DNA of 32,000 nucleotides from Candidatus Electrothrix sp. GW3-4 (GTDB lineage Bacteria > Desulfobacterota > Desulfobulbia > Desulfobulbales > Desulfobulbaceae). Shown here piece by piece: positions 2,938 through 26,044 of this stretch. Below the pieces are notes generated by a model. That model was given only the letters and a program-made list of their open reading frames with translations, was not told the origin of the DNA and made no database searches. How positions within the stretch are numbered: the first letter of the stretch is position 1; each line of letters opens with the position of its first letter. The DNA lies in NCBI RefSeq assembly GCF_037902255.1, contig NZ_CP147990.1, forward strand, positions 1,230,001-1,262,000. The letters are read 5' to 3'. Both the position numbers and the translations under genes were made by a program.

Positions 2938-2943
2938 GCCTGC

Positions 2944-5384: not shown

Positions 5385-5415
5385 GAGACATAGATAAGAA
5401 TAACCGGAGCATATT

Positions 5416-6894: not shown

Positions 6895-6910
6895 CACAAA
6901 CTCCCTGAGT

Positions 6911-7915: not shown

Positions 7916-8205
7916 AAGTAACCAAGGCACGGAATCAAGTAGTGCGGTTAAATTATTGATCTGGTCTGGGGACGCAGCAAGAGCTCTGTGGTTCTGTTCT
8001 GGCAGATTCGCGCTGTTGACTGACCTGTTTTTCTTTACCCTGAGAGATAAATGGGCTATGCTCAGGCGAGCTTGAGCAGATTCTGGCTATTTTTTTGTGC
8101 AGGAATTTTGGCCTGTGTTGTCAAAAAAACAACAGCTGACCAGTGCTGGCTTGAGCAGAGTTATTGAAGAAAACGCAATGATAATGAGAAAAGGAGAAGA
8201 GCTGA

Positions 8206-8658
8206 ATGAGTGAGGACAACAAGGTGCAGCTGCCTATGGGGATCAAGGAAATTCTTGACCTCTTGCCGCATCGATATCCTTTTATTATGCTGGATCGGGT
8301 CTTGGATTTTGAGCCTGATAAAACAATAACTGGCCTGAAAAATGTGTCCATGGGCGAGCCTTTTTTTCAGGGGCATTTTCCAGGCGAACCTGTTATGCCC
8401 GGAGTCCTGATTCTTGAGGGTATGGCCCAAGCCGGGGCCGTGTTGGCCTATCTTTCCACCGAAGACATTGCTGGAAAACTCGTGTACTTTGCCGGAATGG
8501 ACAAGGTTCGTTTCCGCAAGGTGGTACGACCCGGTGATCAGCTGATTTATAAAGTGGAATTGGTTCGGCGAAAAAGCAAACTCATCAAGGTGCAGTGTCA
8601 TGCCTATGTTGATGATGTCCTGGTGACCGAAGCCGAGCAGCTGGCCACGTTTTCTTGA
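8206..8658 (+). CDS. fabZ: 3-hydroxyacyl-ACP dehydratase FabZ
   Basis: 150 aa. LPHRYPFIMLDRV and FFQGHFPGEPVMPGVLILEGMAQ are the FabZ hot-dog active-site signature. AAGGAG-type RBS upstream (aaaaggagaagagctgaATG). Confidence 0.95.
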   Translation: MSEDNKVQLPMGIKEILDLLPHRYPFIMLDRVLDFEPDKTITGLKNVSMGEPFFQGHFPGEPVMPGVLILEGMAQAGAVLAYLSTEDIAGKLVYFAGMDKVRFRKVVRPGDQLIYKVELVRRKSKLIKVQCHAYVDDVLVTEAEQLATFS

Positions 8659-8748
8659 TGTTGTCCCTTTTTGTCACAGGACAAGGTGCAGCACATGTTG
8701 CTTATTAGACTGTTGGCCTAACCAGAGGCTGACAAAGGAATACTATAA

Positions 8749-9549
8749 ATGACTATACATGCTACTGCCGTGGTTGATCCACAGGCGGAAGTTCATGAAA
8801 CCGCTTCCGTTGGTGCATATAGCGTTGTCGGGCCTCATGTCTCTATCGGTCCCAACACGCTCATCGACGCACATGCAGTGATCTCTGGGCATACCCGTAT
8901 CGGAGCTGATAATCATATCGGTTCTTTTTCTTCTCTTGGAACGCCGCCACAGGATATCCATTATCAGGATGAACCGACCGAGTTGATTATCGGAGATGGA
9001 AATAGGATACGGGAATATGTCTCTATCCATCGAGGAACGGTTTCCGGGGGAGGAAAGACGGTTATTGGCAATAAGAATATGCTGATGGCCTATTGCCATG
9101 TGGCCCATGATTGTATTCTCCATGATCATGTGATTATGTCCAATGTGGCAACTCTGGGAGGCCATGTGGAGGTGGGCAGTTATGCCAATCTTGGTGGCTT
9201 GGTAGCTGTTCATCAGTTTTGTCGTATAGGGGCCTATACCTATGTTGGAGGGATGTCAGGTATTTCGCTTGACGTGCCCCCTTATGTTATTCTGACCGGT
9301 ACCAGAAATAGGATGCGCATTGCCGGGGTCAATAAGATCGGTATGCGGCGTAACGGCATGTCTCGGGAAGCGGTTAATGATATTGATCGTGCCTTTAGAA
9401 TTATTTTCCGTTCCTCCCCGCAGGTTCTGGTTAAAGAGGCTTTGGCCCAGGTAACCCATGAATTTCCTGATTCCAAAGAGGTTCGTATCTTAGTGGATTT
9501 TTTCCGAGAGAGTAAACGCGGTGTGGTGAAACGCACCGAAGACAGCTAG
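8749..9549 (+). CDS. lpxA: Acyl-ACP--UDP-N-acetylglucosamine O-acyltransferase LpxA
   Basis: 266 aa. Left-handed beta-helix hexapeptide repeats cover the first ~190 residues (IHATAVVDPQAEV..., IGPNTLIDAHAVISGHTRIG...), followed by a C-terminal helical domain. Canonical position after fabZ. Confidence 0.95.
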   Translation: MTIHATAVVDPQAEVHETASVGAYSVVGPHVSIGPNTLIDAHAVISGHTRIGADNHIGSFSSLGTPPQDIHYQDEPTELIIGDGNRIREYVSIHRGTVSGGGKTVIGNKNMLMAYCHVAHDCILHDHVIMSNVATLGGHVEVGSYANLGGLVAVHQFCRIGAYTYVGGMSGISLDVPPYVILTGTRNRMRIAGVNKIGMRRNGMSREAVNDIDRAFRIIFRSSPQVLVKEALAQVTHEFPDSKEVRILVDFFRESKRGVVKRTEDS

Positions 9550-9563
9550 AACGCGCACTGTAC

Positions 9564-10397
9564 ATGTCAACACCGATCGGACTTATTGCCGGAGGAGGGC
9601 AGTTCCCTCTGCTTTTTACCGAAGCGGCCCAGGAGCGCAAACGCAGAGTCGTTGCGGTTTGTCACCAAAACGAGACGCAAGCGGAGCTTGAGCAACGCGC
9701 TGATATTTCCTGTTGGGTAAAGCTGGGTCAGCTGGGTAAAATCATCCGTTTTTTTCATGAACAGGGCGTTCGTGAGGCTGTTTTTTGCGGTACCATCACC
9801 AAGACCCGGATGTTTAGAGATATCCTCCCGGATTTTAAGGGGCTGAGTCTCTGGAATAAAATTGACAGACGACTGGATGATGCCATCCTGCGGGCAGTGG
9901 CCGGGGCGCTTGAGGAAGAGGGAATCAAGGTGCTGGCCTCGACCTGTTATCTTGAGCATCTTTTTTTTCCAAAAGGGGTCTTAGGAAAGAAAAAGCCCTC
10001 CCAGGAGCAGTTGGCAGATATTCATTTTGGCTGGCGAATTGCCCGTGAAATAGGACGACTGGATATTGGTCAATGCGTTGTGGTTCGCGAGGGGGCAGTG
10101 TTGGCCGTTGAGGCCATAGAGGGGACGGACGCAGCAATACGTCGGGGCGGGGAGCTCTCAGGATCAGGGGCCGTGGTTGTCAAGCTGAAGAAACCAGGCC
10201 AGGATTTTCGTTTTGATCTGCCTGCCACCGGGACCAAGACTATCGAGACCTTGGCCTCGGTGAAGGGGGCTGTACTGGCTGTTGAGGCTGGGCAGTCCCT
10301 TCTTTTTGATTGCGAGGCCATGATTGCTGCTGCTAACCGGGCTGGTATTGCCGTCGTTGGAGTGCAGGAGGATGAGTCTGGCGAATTGCTCTTCTGA
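9564..10397 (+). CDS. lpxI: UDP-2,3-diacylglucosamine diphosphatase LpxI (DUF1009 family)
   Basis: 277 aa. IGLIAGGGQFPLL at the N-terminus and DIGQCVVVREGAVLAVEAIEGTDAAIRRGG...VVVKLKKPGQDFRFDLPATG match LpxI signature blocks. Position after lpxA, as in genomes that use LpxI instead of LpxH. Confidence 0.8.
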   Translation: MSTPIGLIAGGGQFPLLFTEAAQERKRRVVAVCHQNETQAELEQRADISCWVKLGQLGKIIRFFHEQGVREAVFCGTITKTRMFRDILPDFKGLSLWNKIDRRLDDAILRAVAGALEEEGIKVLASTCYLEHLFFPKGVLGKKKPSQEQLADIHFGWRIAREIGRLDIGQCVVVREGAVLAVEAIEGTDAAIRRGGELSGSGAVVVKLKKPGQDFRFDLPATGTKTIETLASVKGAVLAVEAGQSLLFDCEAMIAAANRAGIAVVGVQEDESGELLF

Positions 10398-10419
10398 ACA
10401 GCAATGTTAGGGTAAGCCA

Positions 10420-11649
10420 GTGAAGAGCAAGCAGAAGATACTGAAGGTGCTCCTGCTGACGACCTCCTTCCCTTTAACCAGGGAGTCAAGGAGCGGTATC
10501 TTTATCCAAAAAATGATCAACCAGCTGCCTGATAATGTGCAGGTAACTGTGCTGACTCCAGACAGTGCCAGCGCTGCCCTCCAGCCCTCTGGAGAGTACT
10601 CTGTCCTTCCCTTTCGCTACGCGCCCAAACATTGGCAGCAACTCGCCCATGGTTCCGGTGGAATCATGGCTGCTCTTTCGCGCAATAGGTTGCTTCTTCT
10701 TCTCCTTCCTTCTTTTCTCTGCTCCAATCTGCTGGTCTGCTGTTATGCTGCGCGTAAGATGGATATTCTGCACGCTAATTGGTCGATTAACGGGGTTATC
10801 GCCGGAATTGTCGGGTTGATTTTAGGAAAACCGGTCCTGACCACCTTACGGGGCAGCGATGTTAACCTGATGGAAACATCAGCTTTGATGCGTCGGTTGG
10901 TGCATTTCTGTCTCCGTTTCAGTAATGTTGTTGTTACAGTCAGCCCTTCTTTGCAACAAAAACTTACAGAACGTTTTCCCCAATACAGGGCAAAGATCGG
11001 AGTTATTTGTAATGGCATTGATCAGGCTTTTTTTGCTGCTGAGGATATTCAGGAAGAAGTAGAAGAAGGCTGTTCCGCATCAGGACAAGGGAAAAGATCT
11101 CTCCGTTTTTTATATGTGGGAAATCTGGTCCCTGGTAAAGGGGTGGATATTATTCTTCAGGCAGCAGCTTCCTTGCCTTCGGAGAATTGGCAGCTTGATA
11201 TTATCGGTGACGGACCGGACCGGAAGGCATTAGAGGGGTATTGTCAGAAGCAGGGCCTGGAGAGCAGGGTCACCTTTCGCGGTTCAGCTCCACCAGAGGA
11301 AATACCGCATGCCATGGCCCAGGCAGATGTCTTTGTCTTTGCCAGCTTTGCCGAGGGAAGGCCGAATGTCGTGCTTGAGGCTATGGCGGTTGGCCTGCCT
11401 GTGATAGCCGGAGCAATCCCAGCGGTATCGGATCTCATTGAAAGCGGGCAACAGGGCCTTCTTTTCCCTCCAGGGGATGTCAGGGCCTTGGCAGGACATA
11501 TGACATCTCTTCTGCAGGATTCGCTCGCACGGCAAAGGTTAGGGAACAAGGCCAGGCAGTCTCTTGCATCCTCAGGATTGAGCTGGCCCGAGTCAGCCAG
11601 ACACTATCTCTCCGTTTATACAGATGTTGTTGAGGGGGAGTGTAGTTGA
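10420..11649 (+). CDS. Glycosyltransferase family 4 (GT-B, retaining type)
   Basis: 409 aa with a GTG start. The N-terminal Glyco_trans_4-like half is followed by a C-terminal EGRPNVVLEAMAVGLPVIAG block (E-x7-E signature). It does not resemble LpxB (GT19). Confidence 0.8.
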   Translation: MKSKQKILKVLLLTTSFPLTRESRSGIFIQKMINQLPDNVQVTVLTPDSASAALQPSGEYSVLPFRYAPKHWQQLAHGSGGIMAALSRNRLLLLLLPSFLCSNLLVCCYAARKMDILHANWSINGVIAGIVGLILGKPVLTTLRGSDVNLMETSALMRRLVHFCLRFSNVVVTVSPSLQQKLTERFPQYRAKIGVICNGIDQAFFAAEDIQEEVEEGCSASGQGKRSLRFLYVGNLVPGKGVDIILQAAASLPSENWQLDIIGDGPDRKALEGYCQKQGLESRVTFRGSAPPEEIPHAMAQADVFVFASFAEGRPNVVLEAMAVGLPVIAGAIPAVSDLIESGQQGLLFPPGDVRALAGHMTSLLQDSLARQRLGNKARQSLASSGLSWPESARHYLSVYTDVVEGECS

Positions 11650-11691
11650 GGAGCAAGGCCCACCGCCAACGAAAAAGAGAGGCGATTTTTT

Positions 11692-12033
11692 TTAATCCGG
11701 CTGAGTGGTAACAGCTGCAATTAAGTCTTTCAGTTTTTCAATAATCTGGATGGTCCCTTCAAATGCATCCTGCTCCTCACTCAACACCTGTTCATAAAAT
11801 TCACAGTCGTAACAGCTGGTGTGCAGAATGCGGGCAAAGCTCCCCTGAACTTTTTCAGCAGGGCCGGACATGGTTCCGGTGAGTGCCCAACAGGCCCGTC
11901 CCCCATTTATCCCGTTATTAATCCCGCTCACCGCCATTATTGTCGATGCAGGACAGATTCCCTGGTTCTTTACCTGATTGCCACCGGGTTGGCGGCCACA
12001 TTTTTTCACTTCCCAACAATTTTTTTTTCGCAC
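11692..12033 (-). CDS. Cys-rich 'two-CW' domain protein (putative metal/redox-sensing small protein)
   Basis: 113 aa. GTG start preceded by AAGGAG (CGCAAGGAGAACTGGGTG). The N-terminal NCWEVKKCGR...GICPA...NGGRACWALTGT...SCYDCEFY carries six Cys and two C-W dipeptides in the arrangement I recall for the two-CW domain. The C-terminal ~35 aa are helical and acidic. Confidence 0.55.
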   Translation of the reverse strand: MRKKNCWEVKKCGRQPGGNQVKNQGICPASTIMAVSGINNGINGGRACWALTGTMSGPAEKVQGSFARILHTSCYDCEFYEQVLSEEQDAFEGTIQIIEKLKDLIAAVTTQPD

Positions 12034-12075
12034 CCAGTTCTCCTTGCGTTCTGCTTACGGGCTCTCTTCAAAAAA

Positions 12076-12615
12076 TTAAGGGAGCAGGTTATCAAAGGCG
12101 TTGCCTACCTTCTTTTCATCCAAGAGCTCATGGAGTTCCTTTTTTGATTTTTTTGTGCTCTCACTCTCTGTAGTATCGTGAGTATCATCATTATGATGAG
12201 AGCTCGTGGCCGAGCCAACCTCGGGGCTTCGGAAGTGTTCAGCCAATGCTTGAATAACATGGCCTATCTCAATTTTTGCTATGCCGAAACTGTCGGGGTT
12301 ATCAATGATGAGAAGAAGGTGGATGTGACATTTTCCAGGCTCAGGTCCGAGGGGGTTTTTCCCTTCATTCAGGCAGCGATTGAGAATGAGAGCCTTGTCT
12401 GTATGCATGAAGATAAAATGGCTGCGCCCAAATCCCATATCACGGGAGGCCTTTTCAGCTGTTCGCAGCACGTTATTGGCAAGGGCACTGATCAACTCAA
12501 TATTGATATCTGTGGGTTCACATTTTAGCAGGACTCGACCGTCAGGTGTTAATACGGCTGCCCCGGCAAAGCCATCTATTTCTGTAAGCCGGGAAAGTTT
12601 TTCCTGAAGTTTCAT
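12076..12615 (-). CDS. Roadblock/LC7 (MglB-like) domain protein with acidic/His-rich C-terminal tail
   Basis: 179 aa with an AGGAG RBS upstream of the ATG. LTEIDGFAGAAVLTPDGRVLL...ELISALANNVL...HFIFMHTDKALILNRC...HLLLIID fits the Roadblock/LC7 alpha-beta pattern. The tail (SSHHNDDTHDTTESESTKKSKKELHELLDEKK) looks disordered. Confidence 0.6.
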   Translation of the reverse strand: MKLQEKLSRLTEIDGFAGAAVLTPDGRVLLKCEPTDINIELISALANNVLRTAEKASRDMGFGRSHFIFMHTDKALILNRCLNEGKNPLGPEPGKCHIHLLLIIDNPDSFGIAKIEIGHVIQALAEHFRSPEVGSATSSHHNDDTHDTTESESTKKSKKELHELLDEKKVGNAFDNLLP

Positions 12616-12655
12616 AAAGGTACTCCTGTTTCCGCATATGTCGCTCCCTCCTCCT

Positions 12656-12696
12656 TAGAGCTTGTAAAACGAAGGGTTAAAATTGAGTAGAGCTTG
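12656..12696. repeat. 9-nt direct repeat TAGAGCTTG x2 (12656-12664 and 12688-12696) in the gap between the two Roadblock genes
   Basis: Read directly from the sequence. The period is 32 nt within a 92-nt intergenic gap. Function unknown. Confidence 0.4.
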
Positions 12697-12707
12697 ACCC
12701 TGTATCA

Positions 12708-13109
12708 TTAGATGGTTGTTTCAAGCGGATAAAGCTTCAGCATAATGTCAAGAAGTTCTGCTTCAAAGGATTGCATAACCATCTTGGTCCTGCCAAGCCA
12801 TTCGGTACGATCGGTCATAACAAAGAGAAAAAAGGGGAGGTTCGTGAGGTCTCTGATGATAAAATGATGTTGACCGGTACTGATAATGATATCGTCTGTT
12901 ACCTCATCATTGGCAAGCAGTTTAATCGCCTTACGATTTGATTTCACGATGGAGGAGAGGTAGGCGGCTGCCACACCCGCTTCAATCTCCGGTTGTACAC
13001 TCAGCTCGGCCAGTGACAGGCCGTCATCGCAGTTCACAACCGCAGCTGTTAAAAAACCTGGTAGTTTTTTTTCAAGTCGGTCCAGGAGGGGAGGAAGTTG
13101 CTTTATCAT
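12708..13109 (-). CDS. Roadblock/LC7-like domain protein
   Basis: LPGFLTAAVVNCDDGLSLAE...AAAYLSSIV...HHFIIRDLTNLPFFLFVMTDRTEWLGRTKMVM fits a Roadblock-like pattern. Start placed at the internal ATG (13109). The ORF-track TTG start at 13184 is possible. Neither has a clear SD, so the start is uncertain. Confidence 0.45.
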   Translation of the reverse strand: MIKQLPPLLDRLEKKLPGFLTAAVVNCDDGLSLAELSVQPEIEAGVAAAYLSSIVKSNRKAIKLLANDEVTDDIIISTGQHHFIIRDLTNLPFFLFVMTDRTEWLGRTKMVMQSFEAELLDIMLKLYPLETTI

Positions 13110-13264
13110 GGGGAGAAATCCGGTCAGAGTTTTGAGACGGTACGTATTGTAGTGTTGTAGTGCTGTGGCGCGTTGAGGTTGCAAGGTCTTGCTGCGTGCG
13201 AGGTGCCTCTCGAAAAAAGGTTCGCGTTATATGTTTTCGCCTTTGCCTTATTGCAGGGGGAAAT

Positions 13265-14047
13265 TCATTTCTCTGCATTACTGAACAGGGGAAGCAGGCG
13301 GACAGGCCGCTCTTTGTCTTTACTGATCATTCTGGCATCAAATATAAACCCTGTTCTTCCTGGAAGCCCGTCGGTAATTGCCGATCTCCCAAAGGTTTTA
13401 CGCAGAAAGAGATAGCGCGATGAAAAAAACAGGGCGCCCAGTTCGCTGTCCCAATGCACAGAAACAGGATTTTTATATTTTAACAGAAAAAGAGAGTACG
13501 GCAAAGCAGGATTCACATAAAGAATAACGTAGGAACCGATAACCGCCTTGGAAACCGCGTAAAGCTTATTGCCGTAGGAGGGATGGTTCATATCAGTGGA
13601 AATGCTGTCAAGCAGAGCTATTATGGCCTCGCTGTCCACGGAGCCGATCCTGTCGCCGCTGATTGCTTGCTGGGCAAAGATGAGGTTGTCATTGGTAATT
13701 GTGCCGTTATGTACCCCGACAATATTTCCTCGGATAATAGGATGATTATTAACGTTTTTTTGAGGAGTTCCCTTGGTCGGCTCCCGGGTATGACCTAACA
13801 GAATCGTTGTCTTTTCGGACAGGGAATCCAGCACCTGGAGATACCCTGAGGATTGGACGAATTGGCTCGCTCTTATCGGGGCCTTGTTCACCCGTAGACT
13901 GGAATCGTTATTCAAGAGGGCGATACCCGTGGCCTCCCGCCCCCTTTGTTCATTGGCGAGTAGGTTGGCAGAAAACAATTCCCTGATCCGGCGGAGCTGG
14001 GGAGGGGTTCTGCCAGGGCTGATGAGGATACCGTTAATTCCGCACAT
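13265..14047 (-). CDS. Stand-alone class-II (Ntn-type) glutamine amidotransferase domain protein
   Basis: 260 aa. It begins MCGI (catalytic Cys2 after Met removal), then QRGREATG, GHTREPTKG...NNHPI, VHNGTITND and SVDSEAIIALL, the canonical PurF/AsnB/GlmS-type GATase blocks. No fused synthase domain. It starts 21 nt after the upstream stop. Confidence 0.8.
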   Translation of the reverse strand: MCGINGILISPGRTPPQLRRIRELFSANLLANEQRGREATGIALLNNDSSLRVNKAPIRASQFVQSSGYLQVLDSLSEKTTILLGHTREPTKGTPQKNVNNHPIIRGNIVGVHNGTITNDNLIFAQQAISGDRIGSVDSEAIIALLDSISTDMNHPSYGNKLYAVSKAVIGSYVILYVNPALPYSLFLLKYKNPVSVHWDSELGALFFSSRYLFLRKTFGRSAITDGLPGRTGFIFDARMISKDKERPVRLLPLFSNAEK

Positions 14048-14068
14048 GGCTGCTTGTTATCTCTCTGG

Positions 14069-15358
14069 TCAGCGGAGAAAAACCATGCTGCCCAGTTCTT
14101 CCTGCCAAACCGGGGACCGGTTTTTGTAGTTTTGCAAGCGTTCGTTGATCTCGTTTACCGGAAGCTGCAAAAAGAGGGCTGCTGCGTCAAACCAGCACTC
14201 TTGATTGCCGATATCTGTCAACAGCCCTAATTCAATAAGCTTAATGAGCTCATAATCTGTGCTGTCCAGGGTGGGTTGTGGGCTGATATAACTGAGGAGT
14301 TCATCCTCAATCTCTTTCCATTCTTTGCCCTGACTTCTTCGAAGAGAAATCGGCTCTAAAGCCAGTTGTTGTAGCACCAGTTCACTGGGGTTATCAAGGA
14401 GGAGAAAGATGGATTTGAGGAAAAATAAGAGGCCTTGAGCGTTGTTTCTATATTTTTCCAGAGCGCTATCGTCAATGGCGCTGGTGTCACTGGTCGCCAG
14501 CTTGCCCTCGTTATTACTGATCATATTTATGAGCTCTTTGCTGGTCTCGAAAAAAGGAACGCTATCAACCTTGAGAAGGCCGAATTTGGAGATCTCAACC
14601 GCCTTGAGCATCATGGTCATGAACAGGAAGGTTTTGGCCGTGATTGATACCGGACAGATATCGCCGTCTGGAAAACGGAGTTCTAAGTGAAAATTGGCAA
14701 TCTTGCCGGACGTGCTAAAGCGAACATGTTCGAGATTGAAAAAATTTTGGTGTTCCGGCACCTCCAGACTTTTTTTCAGTATCGTCTGGATTTCTGCCAT
14801 CGACTGTTTTTCTGGGGACAGGCGCATGAATTCCTGATGGGCATTATGCTGTCGTCGTCGACAAAGGGCCTGTCGATCTTTACCGGTTGAGGTGATAAAC
14901 TTAAGCCCAGGCGCAAAAAGACGGGCCATGTTCCAGAGATTTGCCAGGATAATTTCAGGGACTTCTTCTGAGAGACCTGTTCCGAGGATATGGAAATGAA
15001 GGCCGCAGGTAGGACGCATCCTGATTTTTTCTGCCAGTAAGGGCAGGACGATCCGTTGATATTGATTGAGCAGGGCATCCCAGTGAGGATGGCGCCCGAT
15101 CACCAGGACCTCAATACCGCAATGCTCTTTGATGACATCATAGACCCCCAGCTCACCCAGTTGATGCATATCCCCCGAGGGTTGCAAGGCCTCTTCAATG
15201 CGAGGTTGAAAATCCTGGCGCAGCACCCCTTTGGGAAGGGCAAACTCCAGCTCAGTGCCGATCTTGACAGCTCGGTAGAGAAGATCCTGGAAATAACGAG
15301 CATCAGGCAGCGTTAATACATTGGGCCGATTGAGAAAACTGGGACGGAAATTGAGCAT
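14069..15358 (-). CDS. Putative ATP-dependent amidoligase (glutamine synthetase / gamma-glutamylcysteine ligase-like fold) with uncharacterised C-terminal extension
   Basis: Start trimmed to ATG 15358 (429 aa). IGTELEF (res 33-39), CGLHFHILG (118-126) and FHLELRFPDG (223-232) match my recollection of the GxExE, HxH and ExR blocks of the amidoligase family. The C-terminal ~170 aa match nothing I recognise. The upstream 270 nt of the ORF-track call overlap the neighbouring gene and translate to P/H/S/R-rich nonsense. Confidence 0.5.
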   Translation of the reverse strand: MLNFRPSFLNRPNVLTLPDARYFQDLLYRAVKIGTELEFALPKGVLRQDFQPRIEEALQPSGDMHQLGELGVYDVIKEHCGIEVLVIGRHPHWDALLNQYQRIVLPLLAEKIRMRPTCGLHFHILGTGLSEEVPEIILANLWNMARLFAPGLKFITSTGKDRQALCRRRQHNAHQEFMRLSPEKQSMAEIQTILKKSLEVPEHQNFFNLEHVRFSTSGKIANFHLELRFPDGDICPVSITAKTFLFMTMMLKAVEISKFGLLKVDSVPFFETSKELINMISNNEGKLATSDTSAIDDSALEKYRNNAQGLLFFLKSIFLLLDNPSELVLQQLALEPISLRRSQGKEWKEIEDELLSYISPQPTLDSTDYELIKLIELGLLTDIGNQECWFDAAALFLQLPVNEINERLQNYKNRSPVWQEELGSMVFLR

Positions 15359-15379
15359 AAGATCTGCGCAGGGCAGCCG

Positions 15380-15442
15380 ATACCGAAGAAGTGATGGCAG
15401 GGAGAGGGGTTTCTCTGACCCGAATTTCCACTTCTTCGGTAT
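15380..15442 (-). promoter_or_regulatory. Intercistronic stem-loop: perfect 14-bp inverted repeat with a 35-nt structured loop
   Basis: Read directly: 15380-15393 (ATACCGAAGAAGTG) is the exact reverse complement of 15429-15442 (CACTTCTTCGGTAT). The loop can form a nested GGG/AGAG...CUCU/CCC helix. It lies between the stop of the 15454-15930 gene and the ATG (15358) of the amidoligase-like gene. No U-tract follows on the minus strand, so it is not a canonical intrinsic terminator. Confidence 0.6.
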
Positions 15443-15453
15443 TCGAGGGTGCT

Positions 15454-15930
15454 CTACTGTTCTATCAGAGTGAACGTAATCGTGGAACCGTGCGTTTCCG
15501 GGATAGGAGTAATGGCCTTTTGGGCTGGTTTTCCCATGCGGATGAGGGCAGCTTGACAAACGTTCATGATTGGGCAGGTAAAGGGAATATCCACCCCTGT
15601 CTTGAGAATGGACTGGGTCAGGTTCCATCCCTGACAGTGGTTGACGGACAGAGCAATTTTATTTCCTTCTTGCTCGGTGCTGAAGGATTCTATAAAACCC
15701 ATTTCATCAGCAAAAATCCGACCGATTTCAGTAATGACATTCTTGGGATCCTCGCCTTCGACCTCAAGTCCCATTTCCTGTTCCATGATTTCCAATGTGG
15801 ATTTCCCGACTTCGCTCATGGTGGCGAAAGCTGTTTCACCAAATAAATCATAGAGCGCCTTGGCCATGCCCGCAATCATTAAGGTCATGAGGCGCATCAT
15901 ATTTTTTTTCTTTTGTTCTTCGGTAGCCAT
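15454..15930 (-). CDS. Small soluble protein, possibly V4R-like (small-ligand-binding) domain
   Basis: Start moved to the second ATG (15930), which is preceded by AAAAAGGGGGA. The C-terminal IALSVNHCQGW...FTCPIMNVCQAALIRMG...GSTITFTLIE loosely resembles the Cys-containing core of V4R/hydrocarbon-binding domains. This is a weak assignment. Confidence 0.3.
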   Translation of the reverse strand: MATEEQKKKNMMRLMTLMIAGMAKALYDLFGETAFATMSEVGKSTLEIMEQEMGLEVEGEDPKNVITEIGRIFADEMGFIESFSTEQEGNKIALSVNHCQGWNLTQSILKTGVDIPFTCPIMNVCQAALIRMGKPAQKAITPIPETHGSTITFTLIEQ

Positions 15931-16075
15931 AAGGTCCCCCTTTTTCATTGCTAAGTTTAGGTCACCGATTGGGCTGGCGGCCTTGCTGTCTTGATCTCGT
16001 TGTCTTGTCGATATTTACTGATGTTGTCCTTCTCCCGTCTCTGATCGGGATCCTACTGATGGTTTAAAAAAAAAG

Positions 16076-17206
16076 TTATAATGACTTGCGAAGCTGGTCA
16101 AGATAACGCTGGGCGACCAGGCGAACGTTGCCCAGGGTTCCGTCCCGACTTACCGCGATTCCAACATAATATTGAGGGGTGATGAATCTGGTGAGTATCC
16201 AGGCGTTTTGTGACTGGACCAGATTCTCCTCAAAATCTCCCATTCCCTGCAGTGAGTCAATAGATTTTTCGACAAGTTTCATAACCATAGCAAATTTTGC
16301 TGAAAATGCTTCAACGTCTGTTCCTGTTGGATTATGGAGTGCGATTGTGATGCCGTCCATACCTGTTACCTGGATTGCAAGGACGCCGTCCATTTCGCCA
16401 GCCATTTCTTTGAGCAGCTCTTTGATCCCAGCCATTTTACTCTCTCCTTTAAGTGATTGTTGTTTCTTCTTTTGTTGTTGTATACGGATGAATTCTTGCT
16501 TAACCAAATCCAGAGGTCTTTCTTTCATAGCCGTATCCTTACGGTGTGCGGCCTCAAGCAGAAGCGACATGAGTTCGGACTGAATCTTGGGTTCTGGGAG
16601 AGGCGGCGCAAGTTTTTTCATGCTGAGCCGGACATTATCCCAGGTCAGCATTTCAAAAACCGCTTCTTCACCTATGAAATTATCATATATCGCATCAATG
16701 AGTTTGCCCTCTGTAAAAAAGAGATACCCTCTTTTGCCATTGGGATGCGCGACCTTCAATGCTGCTGTTTTTTGTTCCATAGCAACAATTTGAAGAAAAT
16801 TGGCAAGCGAAATACCGGCCAGTCCGTCGTTCCGATGTTCATGGAGGTCCAGGGCCCGGTTGATCGCCTGTTCCAAGGCATCAATGTCAAGAGGCTTTTC
16901 AAGCACCTCCATAGTTCCTGCTTTTTTCAGCTGCTGCTCCATCACTGGGGTACCAAAGGCTGTCATGACGATATTGGGAACCTTGGGAAAAGATTCTGTC
17001 ATGGCTGCGAGCAGCTCAACCCCGTCCATGACGGGCATTCTCAGGTCGGTAACAACAAGGTCCATCGGTATTTTCGATAAGATATCAAGGGCCTTCTGTC
17101 CGTTATGAGCGGTAGTTATCTGGAAACGATCATTTTTTTCAAAACCTGAGCTGATACTGAGAAGCAGTTCCGGCTCATCATCAACAATGAGTACTTGTTG
17201 TTTCAT
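16076..17206 (-). CDS. Response regulator: REC - DUF4388 - Roadblock/LC7 fusion
   Basis: 376 aa. REC: VLIVDDEPELLL...DLVVTDLRMPVMDG...VMTAFG...EKPLD. DUF4388-like: GISLANFLQIVAMEQKTAALKV...GYLFFTEGKLIDA...GEEAVFEMLTWDN. A KKKQQ linker is followed by a C-terminal Roadblock-like part: MDGVLAIQVTGMDGITIAL...AWILTRFITPQYYVGIAVSRDGTLGNVRL. Confidence 0.75.
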   Translation of the reverse strand: MKQQVLIVDDEPELLLSISSGFEKNDRFQITTAHNGQKALDILSKIPMDLVVTDLRMPVMDGVELLAAMTESFPKVPNIVMTAFGTPVMEQQLKKAGTMEVLEKPLDIDALEQAINRALDLHEHRNDGLAGISLANFLQIVAMEQKTAALKVAHPNGKRGYLFFTEGKLIDAIYDNFIGEEAVFEMLTWDNVRLSMKKLAPPLPEPKIQSELMSLLLEAAHRKDTAMKERPLDLVKQEFIRIQQQKKKQQSLKGESKMAGIKELLKEMAGEMDGVLAIQVTGMDGITIALHNPTGTDVEAFSAKFAMVMKLVEKSIDSLQGMGDFEENLVQSQNAWILTRFITPQYYVGIAVSRDGTLGNVRLVAQRYLDQLRKSL

Positions 17207-17247
17207 GGATTACCCTGTGACTGTGTCAGCTCCAGAACTGATTCTGC

Positions 17248-17976
17248 TTATTTCTTTTTTTGCAGTCGAGTAAATTCTCGTCTGACCTTATCTAAGGGGG
17301 GAGCATCACCATATTGTTCTTTATGATAGGGCACCCCAGAAAGGAGAGGCCACAGCTGAGATTGTTCATCAGTCGGAATTGATGAGGGGCGGAATTCTTT
17401 CATGCTTACTCTGAACCCTTGCCACTCCAGCATCGCCAAGACCGCCTCATCACCAGTCAGGTCCCCTTGCTCTGCATCAATGAGGTAACCTTTGCGGAAA
17501 AAGAAACTGCCGTGTTGCTTATCAACATCAATGACCTTTAAGTGAACAGTTTTTTTCTCCATCGCAATAAGCTGGAGAAAGATATCCAACTGTGGCCCTC
17601 CGTTACGATTATGATAAAAATCAAGGGCGTTATTGATCGCCTGTTCGAGCGTTTCGAAATCTAGAGGTTTTTCCAGAAGATACATCGTTCCTGCCTTTTT
17701 GAGTTGTTGTTCCAGGCAGGAGGTTCCAAAAGCAGTCATAACAATGCTGGGAATCTCTGGAAAGGACTGAGTCATGGCCGCAAGAAGGTCTATTCCGTCC
17801 ATCTTAGGCATTCTGAGATCTGTGACGACAAGATCGATAATATTATTTTCGAGAATATCGAGTGCATCCATGCCATTATCTGCTGTCAAGAGCTGGAAAT
17901 GACCATTATTTTTAAAGCCAGCACGGATACTGAGAAGGAGTTCCGGCTCGTCATCAACAATGACTACTTGTTTCAT
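17248..17976 (-). CDS. Response regulator: REC - DUF4388 (tandem paralog of 16076-17206, no Roadblock domain)
   Basis: 242 aa. It is collinear with the downstream paralog through REC and DUF4388. REC identity is roughly two-thirds by eye; the DUF4388 part is clearly more diverged. Phospho-acceptor context DLVVTDLRMPKMDG. Confidence 0.75.
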   Translation of the reverse strand: MKQVVIVDDEPELLLSIRAGFKNNGHFQLLTADNGMDALDILENNIIDLVVTDLRMPKMDGIDLLAAMTQSFPEIPSIVMTAFGTSCLEQQLKKAGTMYLLEKPLDFETLEQAINNALDFYHNRNGGPQLDIFLQLIAMEKKTVHLKVIDVDKQHGSFFFRKGYLIDAEQGDLTGDEAVLAMLEWQGFRVSMKEFRPSSIPTDEQSQLWPLLSGVPYHKEQYGDAPPLDKVRREFTRLQKKK

Positions 17977-18446
17977 AAATCCCCTTTTGGTTGTTCTCTT
18001 GCGGCATCAACGATAAAAGGCCTCGCGTTTGCTTGCAGAAAGATATCAGTATTATACTTCTTATAATATAGTTGTGATACAATATAACGTTCATCCCGTC
18101 CCAGCGGGCCGGGACAATAAAGCATGAAAGATGGGGATCCTGGTCCCCTTCGTTAACCACTTTCATATAAAAAGGCAGTAGTTAGGCATGTATTTTTCTC
18201 CAGTTCCTGTTGCGCGTTGGGAGGCGAATAAATCTTGTTTCTCAGAACATTCCATGTTAGCAATAACAGTGTCTGAAAGAAACAAAAAAATGTGTTGTCA
18301 GTCCAGTTAGATGACCTTTGGGATACCAGAGGTTGCCAGGTGTTGAGCTACATTTTGGCTGGTGCAAATATTTCAAGTAGATGTTTCTTGGTGAATAAGC
18401 ATTGCTGGCAGGCCATTATTGATCCTCTCCTTTTTTCGCATAAGCT

Positions 18447-20498
18447 ATGAAAACTGAAAAGGTTTGTATACTCCTTGTTGATGATGACCCGCTGATTTTA
18501 GCTATTCTGCGCTATATTCTTGAGCATGAACAGTATACGGTGCTGGATGCACAAAACGGTCGTTGTGGGTTGCAACTTGCGGAAGAGGAGCAACCTGATC
18601 TTATCTTGCTTGATATTAATCTTCCAGATATTAATGGATTTTCTGTATGTAAGCAGCTGAAAGAGAATAAGAAAACGAAGGGTGTCCCTGTTATTTTTCT
18701 CACCGCTACCGGCATGGAAGGGCACGAGTATAGAGGGTTTGAAGAAGGGGCTGTAGATTTTCTGCGCAAGCCGGTGAATAAGGCCCAACTCTGCGCCCGG
18801 GTCAATAATGCCTTGGATATGCAAGCTGCTCGGCAGAAACTGGAACAGCAAACCCTGGACCTGGAGCGGGCAAACGCGTTGCTCAAAGAGGCCTTAGCGA
18901 GTCAACAGCGAACAAGCTGTAACTTAGTGCAGAGGGATCATATCCTCAGTTCCGTGAATTATGTGGCAAAATCGTTTTTAAAGACAGATAATTGGGAAGA
19001 GATTATAAAAAATGTACTTAAGTACTTAGGCGAGAACATAGACAGTGAACATGTTTACCTGAAAACCTTTGAGCCACAGATCGCGCAGCGACGCCATTAT
19101 ACCTGGTATAAAACCAATAACACGATTACCTGCTCAAGTATTGATTTGCTGGCAATGTGGAGGCCGCCCATCGAATTATTGTCTGGGGGGGCGATAAGCG
19201 GGCCTGACGCTCATGTGCCTCATTTCCTCTGGGGGGAGTTTGAGAATAATAACATCCGTACCTATCTTATCCTGCCTATCTACGTCTATAAACAGCTCTG
19301 GGGCTGTATTGGTTTCGATTGCAGTCTTGCCGGGCGATCCTGGGCTGAACCGCTTGTTGAGGCGATGAAGACCTCTTCCGATATCATAGGAACCGCAATT
19401 CAGCGAACCTTTGAGTCCAGGGAACGTACTCGGCTGGCCGCAGCAATCAATGAGTTTGCTGACTGTGTGCTTATGACGGACAAGGTCGGGACGATATTTT
19501 ATGCCAATCCCGCCAGTACACAGATTACCGGTTATCTTCCTGAAGAGTTGGTTGGCTTGAAGTTGAGTCAGGTCCAGCATGATGAGCAGAATCGCTTTGA
19601 CTGTCGTGAGGTCCTGAACGCGGTGGCAGGAGGGGCAGAATGGCATGGCGAGATCAAGAATCGTCATAAAGATGGGACATTTTACGACGAGTCTGTAGCG
19701 ATTATTTCGGTAAAAGGAAAGTTGAACAGGGTCAATAGTTTTTGTGTTATCAAGCACGATCAGACAGAGAAAAAGCGGCTTGAATCCATAGCTGAAGCGG
19801 CCAATTTGATGGATAATGTTGGTTTTGTTTTTTCTGGAATCAGGCATGAGTTGGGTAATCCCTTGAACTCGTTAAAGATGGCGATCAGTGTCTTGCTCAG
19901 ACAATTAGGAGATCTTCCTCTGGATAAGATTAAGGAGTTCCTGGATCGCTCTATGGGCGAAATTAAACGGATGGAGTATCTTCTCTATTCGTTGAAGAAT
20001 TTTAACATTCTGGAAGAACAGAAACTTGTCCTGACAGACCTTGCCGCCTTTTTGGAGAATTTTAAGCGGGTTCATGAAAAAGATCTGCTGGGAAATGGTG
20101 TAAAGATGGAGCTGCATATCAAGACGAATGCCCGTGGTCTTGTTGATGAACGGGTCTTGCATCAAGTCTTCCTGAATCTGTTGACGAATGCGGTCAATGC
20201 CCTCCAACATACCTTAGCACCGCTTATATCTATCCATCTTTTGCGAAAAGATGACCAATTTGTCCAGATGATTTTTCAGGATAACGGTTGCGGGATTTCC
20301 GAGCAGGTGAGGAAGCAGCTTTTTAAACCGTTTTTTACCACCCGGGCCAAAGGAACCGGCTTGGGCTTGACCATTGTTAAAAAAATGCTCACTTCGATGA
20401 GCTGTACTGTGAGTATAGAAGGGAAAGTGGGCAAGGGGACCCGTATCATTATCACCTTACCAACGGAAAAGAGCGCCTCCCCAAGAGCTAAAAGATAA
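18447..20498 (+). CDS. Hybrid signalling protein: REC - coiled coil - GAF-like - PAS - HisKA - HATPase_c histidine kinase
   Basis: 683 aa. REC: ILLVDDDPLIL...DLILLDINLPDINGF...FLRKP. GAF-like: YLILPIYVYKQLWGCIGFDC. PAS: CVLMTDKVGTIFYANPASTQITGYLPEELVG...WHGEIKNRHKDGTFY. H-box: FSGIRHELGNPLNSL. N/G boxes: LLTNAVNAL, FQDNGCGI, GTGLGLTIV. Confidence 0.85.
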   Translation: MKTEKVCILLVDDDPLILAILRYILEHEQYTVLDAQNGRCGLQLAEEEQPDLILLDINLPDINGFSVCKQLKENKKTKGVPVIFLTATGMEGHEYRGFEEGAVDFLRKPVNKAQLCARVNNALDMQAARQKLEQQTLDLERANALLKEALASQQRTSCNLVQRDHILSSVNYVAKSFLKTDNWEEIIKNVLKYLGENIDSEHVYLKTFEPQIAQRRHYTWYKTNNTITCSSIDLLAMWRPPIELLSGGAISGPDAHVPHFLWGEFENNNIRTYLILPIYVYKQLWGCIGFDCSLAGRSWAEPLVEAMKTSSDIIGTAIQRTFESRERTRLAAAINEFADCVLMTDKVGTIFYANPASTQITGYLPEELVGLKLSQVQHDEQNRFDCREVLNAVAGGAEWHGEIKNRHKDGTFYDESVAIISVKGKLNRVNSFCVIKHDQTEKKRLESIAEAANLMDNVGFVFSGIRHELGNPLNSLKMAISVLLRQLGDLPLDKIKEFLDRSMGEIKRMEYLLYSLKNFNILEEQKLVLTDLAAFLENFKRVHEKDLLGNGVKMELHIKTNARGLVDERVLHQVFLNLLTNAVNALQHTLAPLISIHLLRKDDQFVQMIFQDNGCGISEQVRKQLFKPFFTTRAKGTGLGLTIVKKMLTSMSCTVSIEGKVGKGTRIIITLPTEKSASPRAKR

Positions 20499-20649: not shown

Positions 20650-21324
20650 ATGTCTTTTGAAGCTAGTTCAACCTGTTATGAGCGTTTGAATAATATCGTG
20701 ATTTCACTTGGGATGGAGGTCTCTGATTCCATTCTTTCCGCGTTACGCAACGAAGTTGAAGCTTGCCGCCAGGAACAGAGGAAAGATCTCGCTATTGTTG
20801 GCCCGGTTCTCTTAGGAATTGATGCTGTGATCCGACATATTGACGAAATAAGAGCGCTTGCCGACGCCCGTGCCTTTCATTTGTTGAATGAACTTATGCA
20901 GGCCTATCGTATGATTACGGAGGAATGCCAGGAGCCGCAAAAGGCCTGGGCCGTGGCATCGGAGGCCCTGGATAAGGTGCTTGCCTGGCAGCATAGTTGT
21001 ATCCAGGAAAGCCAGGAAAAGGTGCAGAACGCAAGCTCTGTTGCCCCGGCCCTGAGCGAATCTCCGACCTTTGACATGAAGGGCCTGCTTGGTGCTGTGC
21101 GGCAGGAAATTGCTGCAACCGGCATGATGGCCATCCGGGAATCTGCTGCATTACTGGAGCTTGTTCATGTCCAAAAAGAGTCTGCAGGTTCTGCTGATCC
21201 TGAGGAAAGTAAAGAGAAAGATGGCGACGCATTCAGTTCTGTTGTCCGGGAAAACATCTCCTCTTTGCAGCAGACGCTTCATCAGGAGATGGGGCGACTG
21301 CGCCATGATTTTATTGGGGACTAA
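20650..21324 (+). CDS. Hypothetical protein, predicted all-helical, no recognised domain
   Basis: 224-aa ORF with coding-like composition and no competing ORF. No SD upstream of ATG 20650, so the start is uncertain. I recognise no family signature. Confidence 0.45.
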   Translation: MSFEASSTCYERLNNIVISLGMEVSDSILSALRNEVEACRQEQRKDLAIVGPVLLGIDAVIRHIDEIRALADARAFHLLNELMQAYRMITEECQEPQKAWAVASEALDKVLAWQHSCIQESQEKVQNASSVAPALSESPTFDMKGLLGAVRQEIAATGMMAIRESAALLELVHVQKESAGSADPEESKEKDGDAFSSVVRENISSLQQTLHQEMGRLRHDFIGD

Positions 21325-25385: not shown

Positions 25386-25399
25386 GAAGGAAGAAGCAA

Positions 25400-25421
25400 G
25401 GGCGGGCGAGGGGGCTGGGGG
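25400..25421 (+). other. Canonical G-quadruplex motif (GGG C GGG CGA GGGGG CT GGGGG)
   Basis: Four G-runs of at least 3 with loops of 1, 3 and 2 nt, read directly. On the coding (mRNA) strand, in the 95-nt gap between the DUF3365 sensor gene and the 4-TM protein gene. Confidence 0.5.
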
Positions 25422-25480
25422 ATGATAACTGGGAGAAAAAGCTCTTGTAGGTTGTGGAAGAGATTTTTGAGGAGATCATC

Positions 25481-25921
25481 ATGCGTATCCCTGTTGGTGA
25501 GAGCCAAAAACGGCTGGTAATTATCTGGTTTGCTGGCTCTGGCTTTCTCTTTGCCTTGCTTTTTTTTCAAACCGTTTTAGGTAAATATGGCAGTGCTGCG
25601 AAAGAGGCCTGGGCATTGATGCTGCCGACCTTCGTACCGGCCCTGTTTTTGATTATTGGTACCCTGATTGCCGATGCAACCAGCGTTTCAGACCCTGATG
25701 AAACTGTCACTATTGATCGCTTTTTCTTTCGCCTTGCTGAGTTCCTCTCGATAGCCTATTTGACAACAGTTATTCTGACCATCCTTCTCAGTCCTTTTTC
25801 CCAGATTTCTCAGTTGGAATTGATAAAATTATCGAATCTTTGGCTAGTGCCCTTTCAGGGCTTGGTTACAGCAGCCCTTGGGGCATTTTTTGTCTCAAAG
25901 AATACGGGGTTGGATTCTTGA
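25481..25921 (+). CDS. Small integral membrane protein (about 4 TM helices), unknown function
   Basis: Start moved to ATG 25481, which is preceded by GAGGAG (6-nt spacer). Four hydrophobic stretches: LVIIWFAGSGFLFALLFF, ALMLPTFVPALFLIIGTLIA, LAEFLSIAYLTTVILTILL, LWLVPFQGLVTAALGAFFV. Confidence 0.5.
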   Translation: MRIPVGESQKRLVIIWFAGSGFLFALLFFQTVLGKYGSAAKEAWALMLPTFVPALFLIIGTLIADATSVSDPDETVTIDRFFFRLAEFLSIAYLTTVILTILLSPFSQISQLELIKLSNLWLVPFQGLVTAALGAFFVSKNTGLDS

Positions 25922-26044
25922 TAATTCTTGAAGTATCGACCCGTTAAGGGTGAAAATCCTGCTGCAGAGGGCAATGTCTCTGGCCTAACGTGCAGGCTGT
26001 TCCCATAGCGCCATTACTCTAATTAGCCATCAAAGACATCCGGT

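Follow-up and report, generated by a model that had tools for sequence, protein, structure and literature searches.

A conserved bacterial cassette in Candidatus Electrothrix sets Roadblock/PATAN signalling genes beside a predicted glutamine-synthetase-fold ligase and a class-II glutamine amidotransferase

To our knowledge, the Ras-like GTPase/Roadblock modules of bacteria are known almost only as polarity or motility switches, and an enzymatic output has never been assigned to them. A 32,000-nucleotide stretch of Candidatus Electrothrix sp. GW3-4 (NCBI RefSeq assembly GCF_037902255.1, contig NZ_CP147990.1, positions 1,230,001 to 1,262,000 of the forward strand; hereafter the window, with position 1 as its first letter) raises the question of whether such an output exists. 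A minus-strand block of eight open reading frames (ORFs), p1 to p8, spans positions 11692-17976 and places Roadblock and phospho-receiver proteins directly beside a predicted carboxylate-amine ligase and a glutamine amidotransferase (GATase). A first-pass annotation had proposed that signalling genes and enzyme pair form one undescribed, GTPase-less system. The reading we favour, which we hold to be about evenly balanced between right and wrong, is that glutamine-dependent, ATP-driven amidation is tied to a Roadblock/PATAN switch driven by phosphorylation or GTP, with a V4R-like protein binding the ligand.

The gene models on which the analysis relies were well defined. All eight ORFs of the first-pass annotation were present, as were the gaps of 21-155 nt, the convergent junction at 11650-11691 and the divergent junction of 470 nt at 17977-18446. 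The start codons are backed by homolog lengths, namely 427-429 aa for p4, 157-158 aa for p3 (homologs beginning MATEE) and 131-141 aa for p6. The p4 ORF (14069-15358) is nested in a longer ORF extending to 15628, and p3 has two start variants, giving 15454-15930 or 15454-15948. The plus-strand ORFs within the block are antisense overlaps of genes that are backed by profile matches, predicted folds or conserved homologs.

A cassette conserved across bacterial phyla

Two distant carriers of the same gene set were Thiorhodovibrio frisius and an acidobacterial metagenome-assembled genome (MAG), in which genes for a Roadblock (or REC-Roadblock) protein, a PF27323 protein (the family of p3), a p4 homolog and a GATase_6 protein are consecutive. 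A locus scan with one genome per species then gave 80 loci, mapped with hidden Markov models (HMMs) built from the window proteins; the counts below cover 82 loci, individually designated L with a number. The scanned loci came from Chloroflexota (the majority), Desulfobacterota, Cyanobacteria, Acidobacteriota/Aminicenantes, WOR-3, Coatesbacteria, Caldithrix, KSB1 and others. The core order PATAN-Roadblock, small Roadblock, V4R-like protein, ligase and GATase was kept in about 75 of the 82 loci and recurred in every one of these named lineages and in a gammaproteobacterium. The cassette is present in at least 10 bacterial phyla.

Linkage within the cassette was equally tight. The p3 homolog lies directly upstream of the p4 homolog in 65 of the 69 loci with enough upstream DNA, and the p5 homolog lies downstream of p4 in 61/72. 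Among well-flanked loci, a Roadblock gene was found in 46/48 and a PATAN gene in 44/48. A reverse search of metagenomes with p2 as the query recovered four loci, and p3 and p4 stood right behind the p2 homolog in all three that had enough DNA. Because the core order is kept in so many loci across phyla, we regard the enzyme pair as truly linked to the signalling genes, as the first pass had supposed, and the neighbourhood searches with p4 and with p2 agree on this point. A fortuitous adjacency of enzymes and signalling genes has a negligible probability, given the conserved order across phyla and the recovery of both p3 and p4 by the p2 search. The lone p4 homolog of Coleofasciculus sp. LEGE 07092 (L064, 1970-3244), with p3, p5 and Roadblock genes not nearby, is among very few exceptions.

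When the unannotated neighbours in the 82 neighbourhoods were clustered, no more than three additional families recurred, namely a small GTPase, histidine kinases and carbonic anhydrases. The sole recurrent non-signalling genes are those for p4, p5 and, in 11 loci, carbonic anhydrase, and for this reason the enzymes are the plausible output of the cassette. The carbonic anhydrase genes belong to two unrelated classes and are located on the same strand, between or next to the p3/p4 homologs. Gamma-like LbH enzymes occur in L035 (1817-2494, hexapeptide/LbH), L041, L042, L046, L051, L060 and L067, and beta-class enzymes in L030 (5372-5998; Pro_CA, 127 bits), L073, L076 and L080. Such displacement by an analogous enzyme suggests that CO2/bicarbonate matters to the enzyme step. 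A protoglobin (gas-sensor) gene is found inside the cassette in L038 (Chloroflexota, 8355-8894), the cyanobacterial L066 (8476-9024) and L077 (3271-3819), with 113 and 73 bits for the two proteins that were scanned, and is another interchangeable input module. Accessory sensors thus vary by lineage, with protoglobin in three loci, two-CW proteins in seven and PAS/GAF kinases in many.

In the searchable literature, which leaves out most subscription papers, no paper was found to connect Roadblock, PATAN or MglA to an amidoligase or a GATase, in keeping with the earlier view that the combination is undescribed. Each part of the cassette falls in a superfamily already known; the novelty lies in the conserved combination and in the p4 family.

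The trio of p3, p4 and p5

The p4 gene (14069-15358, minus strand) encodes a 429-aa protein that we predict to be a carboxylate-amine ligase of the glutamine synthetase (GS) fold. The prediction is drawn from a good AlphaFold model and from conserved motifs. The AlphaFold 2 (AF2) model has a predicted local distance difference test score (pLDDT) of 88.6, and a Foldseek search against the PDB gave 24 matches at E <= 1e-3, every one a GS-fold ligase. The top matches were the YbdK/GCS2 structures 1r8g and 1tt4 (E 1e-5, template-modelling (TM) score 0.41-0.53), and the others included gamma-glutamylmethylamide synthetase (GmaS), GS, Dop (E 1e-4) and plant glutamate-cysteine ligase (GCL). We collected 514 homologs, the best from Ca. 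Electrothrix with 85% identity. An alignment of 36 sequences revealed a very highly conserved protein with the invariant motifs E36-x-E38 (GTELEF), H121-x-H123 (GLHFH) and E226-x-R228 (ELRFPDGD). Judged by the motif pattern, these putatively correspond to the GS metal and ATP residues E129/E131, H269/H271 and E357/R359.

Three cysteines (C80, C118 and C166) are also invariant in the p4 family, as are a C-R-R-R-x-H stretch (C166-RRR) and an NN-G--A-SDT loop in the mainly helical C-terminal extra region (residues ~270-429). These features could form a metal/redox site or a partner-binding surface.

Sequence models did not recognise p4. No Pfam match, Amidoligase_2, GCS2 and COOH-NH2_lig included, was obtained for p4, its 36 homologs or 10 remote homologs; NCBIfam was also empty for p4, a profile search of the PDB returned nothing, and hhalign gave 0.4% probability against E. 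coli YbdK. Sequence-level membership in Amidoligase_2 or GCS2 was rejected on these grounds, so that of the original label 'amidoligase-like' the GS-type fold and the invariant motifs stand and HMM support does not. An exhaustive profile search of 1.84 billion representatives returned 259 cluster representatives only, with no tail into a larger family. Judged by these searches, the p4 family is small, distinct and missing from Pfam.

Relatives of p4 also occur in phages. In a viral structure library, 39 models matched p4 at E <= 1e-3, most of the named ones being called 'amidoligase', and phage 'amidoligase enzyme' models matched at E 1e-6 to 1e-4. Remote p4 homologs of 558 aa (L088, in the region 6916-14626) and 436 aa (L090, in the region 2145-12356) are located on large phage-like contigs; the former is directly flanked by COOH-NH2_lig and GATase_6 genes, and the latter has GATase_6 genes 2-5 kb off. 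Genes for RuvB (L088 and L090), a single-stranded DNA-binding protein (SSB; L088) and MazG (L090) are nearby. Since these phage-borne homologs co-occur with GATase_6 too, the pairing of ligase and GATase_6 predates the signalling context. Gene pairs of a GS-like amidoligase and a class-II GATase in phages and bacteria were reportedly described by Iyer, Abhiman, Burroughs and Aravind (Mol Biosyst, 2009). The cassette resembles them in having a GS-fold ligase beside or near a GATase_6 protein, and remote p4 homologs sit in such clusters. It differs in that the cellular p4 clade resides in a Roadblock/PATAN/REC/GTPase cassette with a V4R-like protein, and in that p4 falls outside the Pfam models.

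The same phage-like contigs and phage amidoligase models are what would speak for a phage-derived conflict or defence module, in which ligase and GATase modify nucleic acid or an invader protein under sensor control. We consider this very improbable. PADLOC gave no significant match for the eight proteins, with only marginal REC-type matches (E 9e-5 to 7e-3), and assignment to a defence system was rejected on that result. The neighbours are two-component and GTPase signalling genes and not nucleases or abortive-infection effectors, and the cellular p4 clade is vertically coherent within phyla. The flanks of the cassette are syntenic within Electrothrix. Mobile-element features were lacking as well: neither flanking repeats nor an integrase were found around the block in the 32-kb window, as the first pass had noted. 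The nucleotide composition is unremarkable and the sole notable direct repeat is the p1/p2 paralogy described below; a mobile element was rejected from the missing repeats and this composition.

The p5 gene (13265-14047, minus strand) encodes a stand-alone class-II (Ntn) GATase domain of 260 aa. It matches GATase_6 with 33.6 bits (cut-off 27) and the N-terminal half of GlmS with E 2.6e-15, and has a weak match to the NCBIfam model EgtC (E 3.5e-4). The homologs start with MCG, providing the nucleophile Cys2, in 71/74 cases. Across 69 sequences, C2, R35-G36, H86-T-R88, H113-N-G115 and D138-S-E140 are conserved to at least 99%. We take the Cys, Arg, Asn-Gly and Asp residues to map to the glutaminase site of GlmS/PurF. 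Judged by its residues, p5 is a catalytically intact class-II GATase, which bears out the first assignment from the match, the MCG start and the glutamine-site residues alike.

Only the glutaminase domain is found in p5, and a covalently linked acceptor or synthase domain is absent. In the window, 21 nt separate p4 from p5, and across 58 loci the median distance is 8 nt; from this spacing and the constant adjacency we infer that p4 is the partner of p5. The likeness to AsnB, GlmS and PurF, and to the EgtA/EgtC and PuuA/PuuD pairs, lies in the glutaminase-site residues of p5 and the GS-type motif residues of p4. In contrast to AsnB, GlmS and PurF, the glutaminase here is a separate polypeptide and its presumed partner has the GS fold. 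We know of no described case of a class-II GATase paired with a GS-fold synthase.

The main rival to glutamine-fed amidation makes the two enzymes a writer and an eraser. Here p4 would attach a glutamyl residue, or a different amino-acyl group, to an amine of either a small molecule or a cassette protein, and p5, as an Ntn amidohydrolase, would take it off again. Such a cycle would amount to a reversible covalent modification tuning the Roadblock/PATAN switch, as CheR/CheB tune chemoreceptors, with the logic of EgtA/EgtC, PuuA/PuuD and PafA/Dop. It draws on the GS-fold ligases nearest to p4, which include gamma-glutamyl ligases (YbdK, GmaS and plant GCL) and Dop, on the weak EgtC match of p5, whose glutamyl-site residues suit gamma-glutamyl-X as well as glutamine, and on the occurrence of ligase and hydrolase beside signalling proteins in every phylum. 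A small tag protein was not found, and the p3 C-terminus is unconserved and has no Pup-like C-terminal Gln/Glu. The p5 site also restricts this reading. From the residue roles in GlmS/PurF, it presumably needs free alpha-amino and alpha-carboxyl groups, which makes deamidation of an internal protein Gln by p5 unlikely, and no target can be named. We regard the writer/eraser cycle as a real possibility of the minor kind.

PafA/Dop shares with the cassette a GS-fold enzyme, Dop being among the p4 fold matches (E 1e-4). It differs in that the cassette has no Pup-like tag with a conserved C-terminal Gln/Glu and no proteasome genes, and in that the partner of p4 is an Ntn GATase and not a second GS-fold enzyme. 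Pup-like tagging through p3 itself, which in the window ends in 'EQ', was rejected: the C-termini are variable in 79 homologs, and 'EQ' occurs only in the Electrothrix group.

The third member, p3 (15454-15930, minus strand; 158 aa), had been annotated as V4R-like. It has no match in Pfam (E <= 0.1, V4R PF02830 included) or NCBIfam, and the assignment survives at the level of the predicted fold. The AF2 model (pLDDT 90.2) matched Bet3 (1wc8, E 1e-5, TM score 0.55) in Foldseek, followed by the V4R sensor domains of PoxR/MopR, a Thorarchaeota TRAPPC3 and H-NOX. The matches to Bet3, TRAPPC3, PoxR and MopR had probability 1.00 and TM scores of 0.5-0.6, in a two-layer alpha/beta fold with long N-terminal helices. 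On the evidence of this model, p3 has the V4R/TRAPPC3 fold. Known members of this fold group bind small ligands in an internal cavity (PMC10933270), and by analogy p3 is a putative ligand-binding protein. Nearly all of the 118 p3 homologs carry the precomputed Pfam tag PF27323 'RdxA_C', a name for whose origin no explanation was found in the searchable literature; it hints that the p3 family has at least been catalogued by someone already.

The p3 family alignment contains only two invariant cysteines, Cys99 and Cys119 (PFTCP), and p3 differs in this from TRAPPC3, with its four-Cys Zn site. The sets of TRAPPC3, Roadblock and small GTPase genes of Asgard archaea, and the TRAPP complex, resemble the cassette through the combination of a Bet3/TRAPPC3-V4R fold with Roadblock proteins and, in Chloroflexota, a Ras-like GTPase (PMC10933270). 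The Asgard genes are mostly outside operons (PMC10933270), whereas here a single bacterial operon holds them with the enzyme pair attached.

The switch layer and its GTPase

The genes p1 (17248-17976) and p2 (16076-17206), both on the minus strand, encode a receiver (REC) domain followed by DUF4388 (PF14332), which we equate with the PATAN domain. The REC domains score 85.9 bits in p1 and 86.6 bits in p2 against Response_reg (cut-off 30.2), and the residues DD(8-10), D (VVTDLRMP; D53 in p1), T (VMTAFG) and K (LEKP) are present in both translations. The DUF4388 match of p2 passes the cut-off of 25 bits with 55.2; that of p1, at 23.3 bits, is slightly below it, and the p1 orthologs in Electrothrix loci score as REC+PATAN with custom HMMs. 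A C-terminal Roadblock domain is present in p2 and absent from p1. It gives 17.4 bits against Robl_LC7 (PF03259), under the cut-off of 23, and 124 bits against an HMM of the PATAN-fused Roadblocks of Chloroflexota. The p2 type is the conserved switch protein and stands immediately upstream of p3 in most loci. The 5' ends of p1 (17855-17972) and p2 (17082-17199) are 76% identical across 118 nt; the two are tandem paralogs, and p1 is mainly confined to the Electrothrix lineage.

Two small Roadblock proteins complete the layer. p6 (12708-13109, minus strand) alone has no Pfam or NCBIfam match, and direct BLASTP against the Roadblock domain of p2 gave nothing, so that profiles were needed. In hhalign comparisons of disjoint sequence sets, p6 aligned to the C-terminal Roadblock of p2 with 100% probability (E 2e-41) and to the p7 family with 97%, and 13/28 members of the p6 family individually match Robl_LC7; its first annotation as a Roadblock protein is upheld. 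The best positional class of p6 is the small Roadblock upstream of p3 in Chloroflexota (57.8 bits). p7 (12076-12615, minus strand) passes the Robl_LC7 cut-off with 25.9 bits over residues 4-77 and has an acidic/basic low-complexity tail. It scores 30.6 bits against the PATAN-associated Roadblock class and 14 and 6.8 bits against GTPase-flanking Roadblocks. Direct homologs of p7 occur in just 11 loci, and p7 is specific to the Electrothrix lineage.

The last gene of the block, p8 (11692-12033, minus strand), encodes a two-CW Cys-rich protein (NF045718, 89.3 bits; cut-off 35). A p8-type gene was found in 7/82 loci, comprising Electrothrix loci and one other deltaproteobacterial locus; the two-CW gene of L050 is placed between p3 and p4. 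The two-CW protein, which the first pass had counted as part of the module, proved accessory, and p8 and the second REC-DUF4388 gene p1 are Electrothrix-lineage extras outside the core. Among the domain matches expected at the outset, Response_reg, DUF4388, Robl_LC7 (for p7, and below the cut-off for p2), GATase_6 and two-CW were obtained, and V4R for p3, Amidoligase_2 for p4 and Robl_LC7 for p6 were not.

A hybrid histidine kinase with the Pfam domain order REC-GAF-PAS-HisKA-HATPase_c (18447-20498, plus strand) opens the right flank, across the 470-nt divergent control region between operon and kinase gene (17977-18446). A homologous kinase-sized gene (~684 aa, N-terminal REC) is located divergently upstream of p1 in the Electrothrix loci L004, L006, L007 and L010 and also in L094 and L095. 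The divergent kinase is probably the phosphodonor for p1 and p2.

Does the switch operate with a GTPase? No P-loop GTPase was detected in the 32-kb window, as the first pass had reported: a six-frame search with the cassette-GTPase HMM had no match at E <= 10, and three Walker-A-like strings are chance matches. The Electrothrix loci L006 and L008, which are fully flanked, likewise showed no GTPase in the 10 kb to either side of p4, and none was found in the shorter flanks of the other six Electrothrix loci. The epithet 'GTPase-less' therefore stands for the window and the Electrothrix flanks and falls for the family, in which a GTPase gene (184-226 aa) is present in 35/82 loci, usually between two Roadblock genes. 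Most of these GTPases contain GPALSGKT and NKRD motifs and match Pfam Ras/Arf/Gtr1; two cyanobacterial ones match ATP_bind_1 instead, and we read this P-loop type as that of CvnD. Among well-flanked cassettes, the GTPase was found in 24/27 from Chloroflexota, 1/10 from Desulfobacterota and 0/10 from other phyla. The first pass had named regular MglA-like GTPases in homologous clusters as a finding that would count against it; they are regular in Chloroflexota and present in 1/20 outside that phylum. Since homologous cassettes regularly carry an MglA-like GTPase, the cassette family is not GTPase-less as a whole.

As to a GTPase gene elsewhere in Electrothrix, the 120 best relatives of a Desulfobulbaceae-type MglA, all with at least 70% identity, included no Electrothrix-named protein, which is weak evidence of absence, and no mention of MglA in Electrothrix was found in the searchable literature. 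Other Desulfobulbaceae have mglBA at a separate locus (L083-L086) without p3-p5, and Desulfobulbus and Desulfotalea possess mglBA (PMC4316618). In L019, from a deltaproteobacterial MAG, an ordinary Desulfobulbaceae-type mglB-mglA pair (11514-13081) directly follows p5 and p6. Its MglA (201 aa) is 75-88% identical to most Desulfobulbaceae MglA matches and is the lone deltaproteobacterial GTPase case.

The fusion of REC to PATAN-Roadblock anticorrelates with a GTPase in cis (counts 6/28/25/8, Fisher p 2e-6). Cassettes lacking a GTPase in cis usually encode a PATAN-Roadblock protein that begins with a REC domain, and in those with a GTPase REC is usually missing. This pattern fits two alternative switch inputs, and our reading is that MglA with two MglB-like genes forms an accessory input sub-module and REC phosphorylation the alternative input. 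The Chloroflexota loci with a Roadblock-GTPase-Roadblock array after p5 had given rise to the idea that a GTPase was deleted between p6 and p7. That idea was unsupported: both proteins score best against PATAN-associated classes (57.8 and 30.6 bits) and only 3-14 bits against GTPase-flanking ones. Because they belong to the PATAN-associated and not to the GTPase-flanking (MglB-like) class, the window Roadblocks are not orphaned GTPase-activating proteins left by a deletion.

The kinship with MglA/MglB raises the possibility that the signalling genes are an ordinary MglA/MglB/PATAN regulator of polarity or motility (type IV pili or gliding), with p3-p5 a merely co-regulated metabolic trio. In Synechocystis, the type IV pilus motor is a reported binding partner of PATAN response regulators (bioRxiv 10.1101/2021.06.11.447907), and PMC4316618 places MglA groups 1 and 5 near PATAN genes; the mglB-mglA pair adjoining the cassette in L019 points the same way. 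Pilus or motility genes do not recur in the 82 neighbourhoods, however, and the enzymes are more constant than any input module. The mglBA genes of other Desulfobulbaceae are separate and lack p3-p5. Co-regulation alone hardly explains a tight linkage over at least 10 phyla, and we judge this explanation unlikely.

The known MglA/MglB modules with PATAN neighbours in Myxococcus and Thermus resemble the cassette in bringing Roadblock/LC7, PATAN and REC proteins together (survey of Wuichet and Sogaard-Andersen 2014, PMC4316618). In the Chloroflexota cassettes, a 194-226 aa GTPase (GPALSGKT, NKRD) is placed between two Roadblock genes. That survey defines a coupled system by a GTPase and MglB within four genes; no such pair is found here, and one is found in 24/27 well-flanked Chloroflexota cassettes. 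For MglA/MglB/PATAN neighbourhoods the survey, as far as accessible, lists only MglA, MglB and PATAN (PMC4316618). The cassette differs by its constant V4R-like protein and its ligase and GATase, and the window Roadblocks are of the PATAN-associated class. The Streptomyces conservon (kinase-like CvnA, Roadblock CvnB, DUF742 protein CvnC and GTPase CvnD) is similar in having a Roadblock gene beside a kinase. It differs in that no DUF742 protein or GTPase is among the window proteins, and the conservon is without PATAN, V4R-like and enzyme genes.

Coupling of switch and enzymes, and the surroundings of the block

In the coupling that we favour, the switch layer would comprise p2 with its paralog p1, together with the small Roadblocks p6 and p7. 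In the window, phosphorylation of the REC domains in p1 and p2 would set the switch, with the divergent hybrid kinase as the probable donor. The same core would be supplemented in Chloroflexota by a further input sub-module, which is made up of an MglA-like GTPase and two MglB-like Roadblocks. The effector arm would be the trio p3, p4 and p5. p5 would hydrolyse glutamine and pass the ammonia to p4, which would convert a carboxylate through an acyl-phosphate to an amide, much as if asparagine synthetase B or GlmS had been divided between two polypeptides. p3 would bind the substrate or product, or present it to the switch proteins, and the switch layer would either gate the enzyme or read its product. 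The parts of this scheme that we infer are the passage of ammonia, the nature of the carboxylate, the way in which control runs and the pairing of kinase with REC domains.

Several observations weigh against this coupling. All functional claims for the cassette members derive from sequences and structural models. p4 is recognised by no Pfam, NCBIfam or PDB sequence model, and the ligase call comes from a predicted structure with modest TM scores (0.41-0.53). A class-II GATase domain can equally be a gamma-glutamyl amidohydrolase like EgtC, to which p5 has its weak match. No fusion proteins were seen, and physical contact of p5 with p4, or of the enzymes with the switch proteins, is unsupported. 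The REC/GTPase anticorrelation is confounded with phylogeny (Chloroflexota versus the rest), the model leaves the carbonic anhydrase genes located between p3 and p4 unaccounted for, and a few loci, for example that of Coleofasciculus (L064), contain p4 and no signalling genes.

The cassette ties the switch layer to a constant three-gene arm of a V4R/TRAPPC3-like protein, a predicted GS-fold ligase and a class-II glutaminase. Should this link prove functional, orphan Roadblock and PATAN proteins would gain a definite output (or input) that can be tested, GTP-driven and phosphorylation-driven inputs would be swappable on one core, and a ligase family overlooked by current domain libraries, with remote relatives in phage genomes, would be defined. 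For cable bacteria, the block is a conserved sensory operon beside a GAF-PAS kinase, with a Cys-rich two-CW protein. The occurrence of TRAPPC3-fold, Roadblock-fold and Ras-like proteins in one bacterial operon also bears on the origin of the eukaryotic GTPase-regulator toolkit. More speculatively, and with a probability that we set well on the low side, the cassette may be a hitherto unrecognised kind of signalling device in which a Ras-like GTPase (in Electrothrix, a phospho-receiver in its place), with Roadblock, PATAN and TRAPPC3-like proteins, controls or reads an ATP- and glutamine-driven covalent reaction, by which either a ligand or a protein of the cassette itself is amidated or gamma-glutamylated. 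If this is true, MglA/MglB-type switches would have an enzymatic effector or adaptation arm, and a bacterial operon would unite the GTPase, Roadblock and TRAPPC3 folds used by eukaryotic guanine nucleotide exchange factor complexes.

The control region and the flanks of the block were also inspected. A scan for promoters and terminators performed no better than on shuffled sequences. Its top sigma-70-like match is a minus-strand site at 18078-18051 (10/12 positions), the number of matches not being above shuffle expectation, and its location in the divergent region is only suggestive of an operon promoter. Just past the hybrid kinase, a 224-aa protein (20650-21324) has no Pfam match and has homologs at the same position in five Electrothrix-type loci; it may be part of the kinase's unit.

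The left flank is a row of lipid A/lipopolysaccharide genes (LpxA, FabZ, LpxI and glycosyltransferases). Inside it, at 4137-6894, genes for a DUF362 protein with 4Fe-4S domains and a B12-binding radical SAM enzyme stand between those for a heptosyltransferase and a GT2 glycosyltransferase. At the left window end, an unassigned 307-aa ORF (41-964) is followed by a BsuBI/PstI-type restriction endonuclease gene (961-1965; 208 and 162 bits). A second sensory cluster occupies 24483-29981 and consists of genes for a Tll0287-like protein, an sCache-HAMP histidine kinase and a PAS hybrid kinase, in that order. As listed, the kinase ORFs share 239 nt, and the second probably starts later.

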